Shown here piece after piece: positions 22,282 through 25,808 of a stretch of 64,000 nucleotides of DNA. The notes below the pieces were generated by a model, which was given only the letters and a program-made list of their open reading frames with translations, did not search any database and was not told the origin of the DNA. Source of the stretch: Candidatus Berkelbacteria bacterium (GTDB taxonomy: Bacteria; Patescibacteriota; UBA1384; 2-12-FULL-50-11); NCBI GenBank assembly GCA_016213365.1, contig JACRAP010000023.1, forward strand, positions 15,871 through 79,870, in the 5' to 3' direction. A program made the position numbers and the translations under genes. Each line of letters begins with the position of its first letter. Positions within the stretch are counted from its first letter, which is position 1.

Positions 22282-22829
22282 TGGTTTCCTCCCCCTTGAT
22301 ATACTAACCCAAGTTGCATCGTTACGGTTAATATTCCGCTTTTATCAGCAGAGATGGTTTGTGACTGAACTTTTGCGGTTCTGATATTTGTATTTATTGC
22401 GCTAATAAATTTAGTAACGCTTGTTAGCGTGCCGTTAAAAGATACTGTAACCGGAACTTCTGCAATTGTTGAGGCGTCGGTGCCTGGTACGGTTTGATTA
22501 GCTGTTGTATTACCGACCGTTACGCCTGAAAATACGATTCCGGAATTAGCGCCGATAGTCTCGATCATTACCAAAACTTCAGGAATTTGGTTTTGTTTTG
22601 GCATCGCTAAATACATCGCTCTTAAGGTTGATTGTACTTGCTCGCCTTTTTCTTTGATTTGTTTCAAATCAGCGATTCTGGTTTTGTACGATTCCAATTC
22701 AACTGAACGGGCTTTAGCATCGAGTGATTTTTCGCCAAAAACCGTAATTTGTCCGCGTAGAAATGCAAACCAACCAAAAACTGCCAGTATTAAAAGAAAT
22801 ATTCCTAATCGTGAGTGTTTATTTTCCAT
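22278..22829 (-). CDS. pilO: PilO-like alignment protein
   Basis: TM helix, coiled coil, AMP...IPEVL, VPVTVSFNG; gene context. Confidence 0.8.
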   Translation of the reverse strand: MENKHSRLGIFLLILAVFGWFAFLRGQITVFGEKSLDAKARSVELESYKTRIADLKQIKEKGEQVQSTLRAMYLAMPKQNQIPEVLVMIETIGANSGIVFSGVTVGNTTANQTVPGTDASTIAEVPVTVSFNGTLTSVTKFISAINTNIRTAKVQSQTISADKSGILTVTMQLGLVYQGGGNQ

Positions 22830-23422
22830 TATTTAACCTTACTTAAATCTATTTGAGCTGAAATAGAAAAAGTTACCCTTCTAGCATCTTCGCCGCTGGT
22901 AAAACCGTTACTGGTTAATGCAACCGAGCTAAATGGAGTAGCAGAACTTTGCGTACCGTTTTGCCATGAAACTAATAAATGAGCGAGACTGGAGAGTGTA
23001 GCGGTTTCGCCGTCAGCTTTAAAGGCGCCGTTACTGGAGATATTGATAGCGGTAAGACGAACATTCTTAGGGGTAACGGCGTTTAGTTTAGCGTAAAAAC
23101 CGTTCCAATTTAACTTGCTAGCCAGGACGGTTGAAAGTTTTTCGCTACCGGTTAGTACTTCTTCAACTTGTTTATTGAGATTTTTATATTCTTCGGAGTT
23201 AAGTTCGGTTTTAGCTTGCTGAATATCACTCTGAAGTTTTTCAATTTTGTTGGTTTGGAAAAAATTTAAACCAAACATTAAGGCAATCTCGATCGCTACA
23301 ACTACGAAGATGATTTTACCAAAAATATCGAGCGGCTTGCCCGAATCTTCAACAGATGCAATCGGGTCTTGCGGGTCTTGCTCGTGCGGCTCTTTTGTAA
23401 CTAAGCGATCTTGAGTATCCAA
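22829..23422 (-). CDS. pilN: PilN-like alignment protein
   Basis: TM helix, coiled coil, W...L...TPKNVRL; TTG start with GGAGG. Confidence 0.78.
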   Translation of the reverse strand: MDTQDRLVTKEPHEQDPQDPIASVEDSGKPLDIFGKIIFVVVAIEIALMFGLNFFQTNKIEKLQSDIQQAKTELNSEEYKNLNKQVEEVLTGSEKLSTVLASKLNWNGFYAKLNAVTPKNVRLTAINISSNGAFKADGETATLSSLAHLLVSWQNGTQSSATPFSSVALTSNGFTSGEDARRVTFSISAQIDLSKVK

Positions 23423-23520
23423 CGCCCCTCCTTTTTTATCCTATGAATTTACTTTACTTGGCATTACTAGAAGCTGTCAACATTTGTAAGTTTGTAGTGA
23501 ATTATCTGCTTTGAGATTAT

Positions 23521-23598
23521 TGGCAGGGGCGACAGGAGACGAAAGTCGCACTGCGAGCTCCTAGATTCTCGCTGGCTTAGCTAGCTCGAAACCGAACC
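23521..23598 (-). repeat. tRNA-Trp 3'-end-derived direct repeat with T-loop insert, distal copy ending in CCA
   Basis: 23523-23598 matches 24355-24430 (76 bp, 4 mismatches). Confidence 0.9.
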
Positions 23599-23642
23599 AG
23601 TAAATACAAAAGTTAATACTATCAGCTATTCGGCTAAGACTT

Positions 23643-24344
23643 TCATTCGTAGAATTGCGTCCACCCTTCCATCGTTCCCTCATTACGAAATGCTTGATTT
23701 AGCTTTTCTTCTAAATCTGGCTTCGACCTATAAAGACTCTTATAAAGATTAGGGTAAAGAGGTTGGAGATAATAATATTGGGGGTATTTCACCTTCATCG
23801 CTTCGTATAACCCCGTCCAGAAAGTAAATACTTTTTTAGCATCATAAAAGCAAATCTCGCTCGGTATCGCGTTAAGCCCCAACTTATGTGTTTTATAGGT
23901 TATCTGATCCACAACCCTCTTCCATGTCTTATCGTTAACTAACGCAAGTATCTGAACATTAATAATTTCCCTGTCATTCGTACGCTCAGTTTCATAGATA
24001 TGTGAGTGAGTGAGGGCGTTTCGCACTACTATTACTTCATCATAATCCTGCTTTAAGGGGTGCGTTCCTCCAATTAGTTTATTGAATTTACTGCCAACCC
24101 TTTCATTTAGTAAGTCGGCAGACCAATTATTATTTTTTATTAACAAATATATAACCCTGTTGAAGTACCCTTCTATACTATTAACTAACAGAATTATTGC
24201 CTCAGCTGCTTGAGTGCTTTCCCCGCAGGATATTGGCTTACCTGCTTTGTGATTTGGGTTCCTCTTTGAATACTCGTATGCCAATAAGTAGTGATTCAGG
24301 GCATCTTCAGCTGTAAAAACTGGGGATATTTCCAAATGATTCAT
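23643..24344 (-). CDS. putative HEPN-domain protein
   Basis: 233-aa, predicted largely helical ORF; EGYFN segment and R-N-x3-H motif (RNALTH); ATG at 24344. Confidence 0.6.
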   Translation of the reverse strand: MNHLEISPVFTAEDALNHYLLAYEYSKRNPNHKAGKPISCGESTQAAEAIILLVNSIEGYFNRVIYLLIKNNNWSADLLNERVGSKFNKLIGGTHPLKQDYDEVIVVRNALTHSHIYETERTNDREIINVQILALVNDKTWKRVVDQITYKTHKLGLNAIPSEICFYDAKKVFTFWTGLYEAMKVKYPQYYYLQPLYPNLYKSLYRSKPDLEEKLNQAFRNEGTMEGWTQFYE

Positions 24345-24354
24345 ATTATATTTT

Positions 24355-24670
24355 GCAGGGGCGACAGGAGACGAAAGTCGCACTACGTGCTCCTAGATTC
24401 TCACTAGCTTAGCTAGCTCGAAACCGAACCTGCGACCTACGGTTGACGTACTGCTTATGGCAGGGGTGACAGGATTCGAACCTGCGACCTACGGTTTTGG
24501 AGACCGGCGCTCTACCAACTGAGCTACACCCCTGCCATAAGCAAACTATCACAGCGCTCTTCCGGGGTTTAAGCGTCGCAAGTATGCGACAAGCTTAAAC
24601 CCGTCTCGGAGGCTCGAACTGAAACTGTTCAGTTCTCGCTGGCTCCTCGACCCAACTGAGCTACACCCCT
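24355..24670 (-). other. expanded, interrupted outer copy of tRNA-Trp enclosing the intact gene
   Basis: Colinear tRNA fragments at 24652-24670, 24554-24560, 24425-24444 and 24355-24369 separated by inserts. Confidence 0.8.
24458..24533 (-). tRNA. tRNA-Trp(CCA)
   Basis: 76-nt cloverleaf; anticodon loop CTCCAAA; GTTCGAATC; encoded CCA. Confidence 0.97.
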
Positions 24671-24722
24671 AAGACTGGCAGTGCCAGTTACATAATTTTA
24701 CCAGTTTTTTATGAGTAATCTA

Positions 24723-24887
24723 TTACTTACTCTCTTTGTGAGTAGTCTTGGCTTTACAGCGATTGCAAAATTTGTTCAGCTCTAGGCGAACCGTCGTGTT
24801 GGTTTTATTCTTTTCGGAATAATAATTTCTTTCTTTGCAAACAGAGCACTCAAGTGTGATCGGTTCGCGAGTTTTTTTCTTTGCCAT
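24723..24887 (-). CDS. rpmG: 50S ribosomal protein L33 (54 aa, absent from the ORF track)
   Basis: Manual translation MAKKKTREPITLECSVCKERNYYSEKNKTNTTVRLELNKFCNRCKAKTTHKESK. Confidence 0.96.
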   Translation of the reverse strand: MAKKKTREPITLECSVCKERNYYSEKNKTNTTVRLELNKFCNRCKAKTTHKESK

Positions 24888-25011: not shown

Positions 25012-25095
25012 TGCTGGGTGAGGGATTCGAACCCCCGAAGGCACAAGGCCATCGCGTTTACAGCGCGCTACGTTTGACCACTTCGCTAACCCAGC
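25012..25095 (-). tRNA. tRNA-Tyr(GTA)
   Basis: Anticodon loop CTGTAAA; long variable arm; CCA not encoded. Confidence 0.93.
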
Positions 25096-25691
25096 ATATT
25101 ATTTATTGCGTATCTTATGTCGTCCATTAGGTTATCCCACAAACGCTTGTCTGCATAGCGTATATGAACTAATCCGTTTTTCATTTTATCATTATGATTA
25201 CTGGTTAGTCCAGATTTAATATATGGTTTTGTAAACTGAGATTTAGGTATATCTAGTAGTTTAGACCAGTAACTAATAATTTTACCAACATCCCTATTTT
25301 CATGCGTGTATAAATAAACCCTTAGCTTCTCTTCATTGATTTGATAAATCTCCCTAAGCATTCTTAAGAAAATAGAAATTACTTGCGGATCTGAATTTGC
25401 TAGGTCTACAACACCGAATGATTTTTTTGAACCTTCACCTAGATATATAAAGAGTCCGGCAATAAATAACTCATTTTGTTTTGTGTTCAGTCTTGTTAAC
25501 TTCGAGTAACTCAATGGTTTTGATAAAAAAGTTAGCTTATTTGAATATACCGTTGTTCTTCTAGGAATTTCTCTCCGTTTAAGGGTTCTATATATTGACC
25601 ATTGAGAAATATTCAAAATATTTGCTATTTGTGGCGCACTCTTTCCCTGTGAATATAAATCACAAATCGATATATCTATATTTTCTTGCAT
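25086..25691 (-). CDS. HTH plus LAGLIDADG-like protein between tRNA genes
   Basis: N-terminal HTH (GKSAPQIANILNISQWSIYRTLKR); GLFIYLGEGSK helix; NSDP; YWS; probable ATG at 25691. Confidence 0.7.
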   Translation of the reverse strand: MQENIDISICDLYSQGKSAPQIANILNISQWSIYRTLKRREIPRRTTVYSNKLTFLSKPLSYSKLTRLNTKQNELFIAGLFIYLGEGSKKSFGVVDLANSDPQVISIFLRMLREIYQINEEKLRVYLYTHENRDVGKIISYWSKLLDIPKSQFTKPYIKSGLTSNHNDKMKNGLVHIRYADKRLWDNLMDDIRYAINNMLG

Positions 25692-25736
25692 TTGAATAAT
25701 AATACACAAATCAGTATCCACTTGCACTTCAAACCG

Positions 25737-25808
25737 AGCCACCTGTCGGATTCGGACCGACGACCTGCTGTTTACAAAACAGCTGCTCTACCGCTGAGCT
25801 AAGGTGGC
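25737..25808 (-). tRNA. tRNA-Thr(TGT)
   Basis: Cloverleaf; anticodon loop TTTGTAA; atypical T-loop TCCGAAT; CCA not encoded. Confidence 0.88.

Follow-up and report, generated by a model that had tools for sequence, protein, structure and literature searches.

The window, a 64,000-nt stretch of contig C15 in the draft genome (560 kb, 94% complete) of an ultra-small groundwater bacterium, carries on its minus strand, in this order, the genes for tRNA-Thr, tRNA-Tyr and a further tRNA-Thr, rpmG, a nested tRNA-Trp locus and a type IV pilus operon. At the centre of the nest is an intact 76-nt tRNA-Trp(CCA) gene (24458..24533; all features of the nest are on the minus strand), which matches Rfam family RF00005 at 72.8 bits and is the sole credible Trp gene called by ARAGORN in the assembly. 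Around it lie the pieces of a second, broken tRNA-Trp: nt 1–19 up to G18G19 (24652..24670, identical to the intact gene), a 91-nt double-hairpin insert in the D-loop with tandem G.A pairs and GG on both sides (24561..24651), nt 21–27, that is, the 3' strand of the D-stem and the first base of the anticodon stem (24554..24560, equal to the intact gene), a left spacer (24534..24553), the inner tRNA itself, a right spacer (24445..24457), nt 38–57, comprising the 3' strand of the anticodon stem, the variable loop, the 5' strand of the T-stem and the start of the T-loop (24425..24444, identical), a 55-nt double-hairpin insert in the T-loop whose fold contains tandem G.A pairs and triloops, one of them C(GTA)G (24370..24424), and finally nt 60–74, the 3' strands of the T-stem and acceptor stem (24355..24369, one mismatch). 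The shell has no anticodon. The two spacers hold the arms of a 17-nt perfect inverted repeat (24452-24468 / 24527-24543), which flanks the inner tRNA, extends its acceptor stem in the fold and delimits a tRNA-carrying cassette. Piece-by-piece comparison with the intact gene bore out every piece and coordinate of the original prediction, including an intact tRNA in the place of the shell's anticodon arm, and added to them the 17-bp inverted repeat and a second, 79-nt copy of the 3' part of the shell at 23520-23598.

BLAST searches with two exact shell pieces against the whole genome gave E-values of 6e-4 and 2e-3, and random 260-mers subjected to the same kind of test for end duplicates yielded 6 hits in 15200, such that a chance origin of the shell pieces is excluded. 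Within the outer 3' end (24355-24369), a 14-nt stretch exactly matches the tRNA-Trp type of three relatives. A search of 24340-24700 against Rfam returned RF00005 alone, with all remaining matches at E 3.8 or worse and no group I intron core among them, and a promoter scan scored no better than shuffled sequences. The usual order has secE-nusG behind rpmG and tRNA-Trp; here (22829-24887) the type IV pilus operon stands in its place. Between tRNA-Thr(TGT) and tRNA-Tyr lies an ORF of 218 aa (25086-25742, minus strand; GC content 32%) whose N-terminal part weakly matches an HTH domain.

The genome was assembled from short reads at low depth (about 5), which leaves room for the nest to be a misassembly of repeats around the tRNA. 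Two contigs from one sequencing run, possibly of the source sample (X1), tile 24304-24671 with zero differences, and contigs from an independent study (X2) cover 24353-24469 with 5 differences and 24576-24726 with 1 difference. Both outer junctions are present in the X2 contigs, but no single contig from X1 or X2 crosses the whole locus. In a genome of another genus (G005), a nest with all three inserts recurs, its shell arms conserved and its spacers diverged. In view of this recurrence and of the X2 junctions, we consider a misassembly extremely improbable.

The second copy of the 3' part (23520..23598, minus strand) consists of the T-loop start, the T-loop insert and the tRNA 3' end; it is identical to 24352-24430 at 74/79 nt and lies 832 nt downstream of the first copy. 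Between the two copies is a cargo ORF (23643..24344, minus strand; 233 aa from ATG) for a predicted HEPN-fold RNase with an RxxxxH motif and putative activity. It has 48 homologues besides itself, and within the motif R107 is invariant and H112 nearly so in 38 homologues. The predicted model (pLDDT 91.5) has HEPN proteins or HEPN-type toxins, by title, as 8 of its top 9 structural matches, the best with a Z of 8.1, which is modest for a helical fold, at an rmsd of 3.0 over 114 aligned residues. Pfam and PADLOC gave no match to the cargo, a word-based homologue search and a PDB sequence search returned only the protein itself, and Foldseek gave no match at E<=0.001. The gene is rare, occurring in 1 of 401 genomes of the phylum. 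The X2 sequence directly behind the tRNA has the alleles of the distal copy at 3/4 internal diagnostic sites, as expected of an allele without the cargo insertion.

Tyrosine-integrase islands (Islander) reportedly leave a displaced tRNA fragment that marks the far end of foreign cargo, and a displaced tRNA fragment lies at the far end of the cargo here as well. This likeness, together with a 79-nt direct repeat that starts in the T-loop and encloses foreign cargo in the manner of island ends, is what would be expected if the repeats were remnant attachment sites of integrase-driven islands or prophages whose integrase was lost. However, there is no integrase ORF between or beside the repeats, the repeat contains a hairpin insert, and the joint lies in the dead shell and not in a live gene. 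Since such remnants would also leave unexplained the 5'-end duplicates, the presence of a whole tRNA in a split gene and a conserved hairpin family found in 8 isotypes, we regard this origin as very unlikely. The downstream units also resemble the TLRs of E. coli, which are units behind a tRNA gene that terminate in a copy of just 18-19 nt of its 3' end and can form tandem repeats (PMC8144298): there are two downstream units here, and both close with a copy of ~15 nt from the tRNA 3' end. In contrast, the available text of that paper describes no 5' duplicates, loop inserts or nesting for TLRs.

The original prediction held that ordinary integration scars duplicate only one end of a tRNA. This is fair as a generalization, but in this genome both ends are duplicated at 4/38 tRNA genes, which makes the locus an instance of a pattern seen throughout the genome. 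Under strict criteria, 12/38 tRNA genes have an end duplicate (9 at the 5' end, 7 at the 3' end, none on the wrong side), and most duplicates have hairpins in the D- or T-loop of the copy. Some duplicates stand in tandem: whole units of hairpin plus tRNA end are repeated at tRNA-Met, -Lys, -Leu, -Ser and -Arg (G000 C7 5191-5900, C22, C20, C21 and C8). The architecture of the T-loop insert of the window recurs behind other tRNAs of the genome; its sequence has no close match in 18 relatives, and its family is therefore judged by architecture only.

The layers of the nest occur independently of one another, with 5 tRNA genes of this genome having a 5' duplicate only and 3 a 3' duplicate only, although two-ended duplication is mildly more common than independence predicts (p 0.04), which counts against independent layers. 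One-sided duplicates are what would be left by two independent one-sided events, a D-loop unit bringing a fresh 5' end and a T-loop unit bringing a fresh 3' end, with each hairpin unit inserting into the live gene, regenerating it and pushing the old end outward. The tandem repetition of whole units, a cargo unit of the same form and the near identity of shell and inner gene at this locus all agree with such events. However, the two spacers are perfectly complementary to each other and pair as an inverted repeat that encloses the inner gene, and comparable pairing occurs in 17/25 nested loci, where 8 or more of the 10 positions next to the acceptor stem of the inner tRNA are paired. Nests with an unbroken outer T-arm also exist (L057, L082, L050). 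A third observation against one-sided events comes from one relative (G018), in which both halves of the shell agree with a tRNA-Trp type that two other members of its genus (G017 and G011) have in intact form, whereas the inner gene is of another type. We therefore consider two one-sided events unlikely as an explanation of the nest.

Because the shell of G018 is of the resident type and its inner gene of another, and because the cassette has inverted-repeat arms, these nests point to an incoming cassette that splits the resident gene and replaces it. Similarly, the outer acceptor is unlike the inner acceptor in 7/9 of the whole shells found by script, and two further genomes (G006 and G013) have a displaced tRNA 3' end of another type. 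In the window, shell and inner gene are nearly the same sequence (one base differs), and a foreign origin of the inner tRNA is accordingly not shown at this locus. A whole outer shell was found by script in 9/25 nested loci, or in 12 when three that were read by eye are counted; in the remaining nests, about half of the 25, one side of the shell is decayed or missing and the D-loop insert is intact. The 16 tRNA-Trp loci of the family comprise 4 that are nested, 3 with 3' duplicates only, 8 that are plain and 1 cut by a contig end. Three loci (L063, L069 and L074) are three-layer nests of tRNA-Pro and tRNA-Ile halves, and the outermost layer of L069 contains both its D-loop insert and its T-loop insert.

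The replacement of a broken gene by a carried copy recalls the tRNA-dependent lysogeny of actinobacteriophages, in which, according to the available text of its description, a whole prophage with a tyrosine integrase carries the replacement tRNA (PMC10865867). Here too, a same-isotype tRNA is carried inside the broken gene. The nests differ from that system (PMC10865867, as far as its available text goes) in that the cassette is of ~110 nt, has inverted-repeat arms, lacks an integrase and can form nests of as many as three layers (L063, L069).

The D-loop insert is a member of a family-wide covarying element (model R1). In an alignment of 15 copies (92 columns), 97% of cells are paired and 17/29 pairs are compensatory, and the covariation, scored for a structure derived from the same sequences, was above all slid controls and, for four of the five measures, was reached by 0/500 shuffles. 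A search with the model yields 30 copies in 11/19 genomes of the family; it has no match in 132 genomes from other families within the class, nor in 150 phylum genomes that were searched. Among the 30 copies, 21 are in D-loops and 2 at anticodon loops of broken tRNA copies, those in D-loops following G18G19 and mostly having GG again near the far end; 6 lie outside tRNAs and 1 is unclear. All 23 copies at tRNA sites, representing 8 isotypes, adjoin an intact tRNA, which is 14-171 nt downstream in 22 cases and just upstream in one. Similarity among 20 tRNA-site copies depends on the genome (0.751 vs 0.696 for all; p 0.007) but does not follow the isotype (p 0.21), a pattern suggestive of copying from one gene to another; the 20 come from an alignment of 25/30 copies, without truncated, interrupted and divergent ones, the genome effect rests largely on four copies in G008, and kin are not independent. 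The element R1 thus behaves as a mobile element. Its G.U share is low (6/420 paired cells vs 60/1205 in tRNA stems), no more than a hint of a DNA substrate.

In two loci (L065 and L070), another insert splits the R1 element, which points to targeting on more than one occasion. Five other copies (L075, L079, L080, L083 and L084) place the hairpin in a second, structured context that is not a tRNA, with shared flanks and no Rfam match, possibly a new RNA gene or element. A kink-turn reading of the insert was dropped, because no bulge is left beside the G.A pairs once 13-40 and 14-39, which covary, are paired. Searches with the D-loop pattern gave one chance match, in a coding region, among viral contigs, and among genome contigs 7/17 matches were attributable to chance and came from other phyla; these seven were dropped.

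The hairpins near tRNAs are strand-specific. Tandem-G.A hairpins near tRNAs number 10 in sense and 0 in antisense orientation, with 11 in the rest of the genome, and C(GNA)G triloops near tRNAs number 19 in sense and 0 in antisense, where 3.3 are expected. GNRA loops have no polar enrichment near tRNAs (18 sense, 18 antisense) and UNCG loops are in no excess (5 vs 5.1 expected). DNA mini-hairpins of the C(GNA)G type far exceed their RNA counterparts in stability, as stated in the available text of a review (PMC13037366), and this stability, taken with the polarity of the triloops, suggests folded single-stranded DNA as the substrate. Such a substrate would fit the T-loop inserts better than the D-loop insert; that of the window has no GNA loop, and the first loop in its family is usually CTGC. 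The sense-strand polarity fits RNA equally well, and folding energies of the inserts as RNA and as DNA did not discriminate between the two. A check of the replication strand found local skew to be positive for 9/12 tRNAs with duplicates vs 16/26 without.

If the hairpins acted as RNA, the nest might be a functional giant tRNA-like transcript. Its shell and hairpins would fold around the tRNA to scaffold processing, or would work as a decoy or an antitoxin RNA, with the neighboring HEPN RNase as one possible counterpart. The shell, which lies downstream of rpmG in the same orientation, is probably transcribed, covariation in the D-loop insert is strong, and the nest of G005 retains all three inserts and conserved shell arms in another genus, a retention that could be explained either by selection or by recent transfer. 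The 326-nt strand also folds well (z -6.96), much of which comes from local hairpins. That the outer pieces keep their stems, as originally claimed, holds for their sequence but not for the predicted fold: in the RNA ensemble, the mean pair probability is 0.98 for the outer acceptor stem and 0.00 each for the outer D- and T-stems, forcing the outer tRNA shape on the fold costs 9.4 kcal/mol, and the joint folding of outer acceptor, D- and T-arms expected of a tmRNA-like domain is absent from the prediction. Moreover, the shell is incomplete in about half of the 25 nests while the insert stays intact, the parts occur independently, tRNA-Trp is plain in 8/16 relatives, tRNA is the sole Rfam family at the locus, and the HEPN gene was found in 1 of 401 genomes whereas the nest occurs in several. 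The giant tRNA-shaped precursor or scaffold put forward in the original prediction is not supported by these results, and we consider a functional giant RNA, a decoy role included, a quite improbable reading of the locus.

The same prediction had also named a palindrome-insertion process acting on stable-RNA genes, and it is this proposal that the covarying R1 family, the polarity of the triloops, the replaced tRNA-Trp types and the genome-wide end duplicates support. That the nest arose by layered insertions of hairpin elements, the one-sided variant included, is highly probable. More specifically, we read the locus as the layered scar of small, gene-less mobile DNA elements around a rescued tRNA, with a probability of roughly 0.6. 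We infer three steps, in the following order. A short cassette with a whole tRNA would first enter the resident gene within its anticodon arm, so that a single event would both split that gene and take over its function. Hairpin elements would then recognize tRNA loops in the folded single-stranded DNA of the tRNA-like strand, this DNA being the proposed substrate, and would insert at the D-loop GG and in the T-loop, surviving only beside an intact copy. Later, the hairpin and the 3' end would have served as the joint for an added unit with the HEPN gene, duplicating 79 nt.

No mobilizing enzyme was found that tracks the D-loop element. The genome has one distant PF00589 match to tyrosine recombinases, on contig C5 and far from any tRNA, which is presumably a lone Xer recombinase, no match to a Y1 transposase, and no small GIY-YIG gene at 94% completeness, its only PF01541 match being a 539-aa frame that is presumably UvrC. 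Short gene-less hairpins with strand polarity that spread within a genome are typical of REP/REPIN and IS200/IS605-derived elements, and the element here is likewise short, multi-copy, polar and hairpin-forming. It differs in its targets, which are tRNA loops with an intact gene always alongside, and apparently in the enzyme, as no Y1 match was found in this genome or in 5/11 genomes carrying R1. Y1 genes occur in 8/19 genomes of the family, which are incomplete drafts, and 0/14 examined Y1 loci are near a tRNA. Small GIY-YIG genes are likewise missing from 5/11 carriers, and one carrier in a single contig (G001) has neither enzyme.

Small GIY-YIG genes (15 matches) are present in 7/18 relatives. 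Among the 12 whose neighborhoods were examined, some of them by eye, 3 stand behind a tRNA, 3 behind tmRNA, 1 by RNase P RNA and 1 in a 16S gene, and 4 have no such neighbor. Two of the three tRNA-linked genes, in two relatives, are behind a T-loop-hairpin duplicate of tRNA-Lys. These enzymes do not track the D-loop element and are a lead as candidates. The main text on Ssn proteins describes single-domain GIY-YIG nucleases with NTS/SRM hairpin repeats that were shown to cut and not to insert (PMC11893778). As in the Ssn/NTS system, where the available text has strand-specific hairpin repeats acting as single-stranded DNA (PMC11893778), the hairpins here are strand-specific, and in the two relatives a small GIY-YIG gene accompanies them. 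However, the SRMs described there are 20-50-nt inverted repeats (PMC11893778, available text), unlike the 55-91-nt double hairpins in tRNA loops, the word tRNA is absent from the main text of that paper, and no single-domain GIY-YIG match flanked by hairpins occurs in this genome. The enzymes that define the lysogeny, Ssn/NTS and REP systems are thus either missing from the locus or cannot be demonstrated for it. As side observations, small GIY-YIG genes of the relatives lie within the 5' part of a 16S rRNA gene, next to RNase P RNA and after tmRNA (L088, L089, L091, L106, L107).

The D-loop element offers a precisely delimited 91-nt substrate whose junctions are known, and this allows a direct search for the missing enzyme. 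A more general proposal, which we put forward tentatively and regard as doubtful, is that in ultra-small bacteria an undescribed recombination system, free of integrases and anchored at tRNAs, may recognize tRNA genes in the form of single-stranded DNA that has folded. Its hairpin units, marked by tandem G.A pairs, would enter the D-loop, the anticodon arm or the T-loop of a tRNA gene, exchange one tRNA allele for another, displace older alleles into nested outer shells and stack cargo such as the HEPN gene at these same joints. If true, tRNA genes of tiny genomes would not be static, essential single-copy genes being repeatedly replaced, and would be docking points for cargo by way of elements without a gene of their own. 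The literature searched, which included few subscription journals, held no description of such nests, and the nested tRNA architecture, real and recurrent, is apparently undescribed. Such nests mislead the annotation of tRNAs and of islands. Separately, at the tRNA-Tyr position of two loci (L013 and L020), ARAGORN calls a tRNA with a 191-nt intron, which is probably an intron-bearing tRNA-Tyr.
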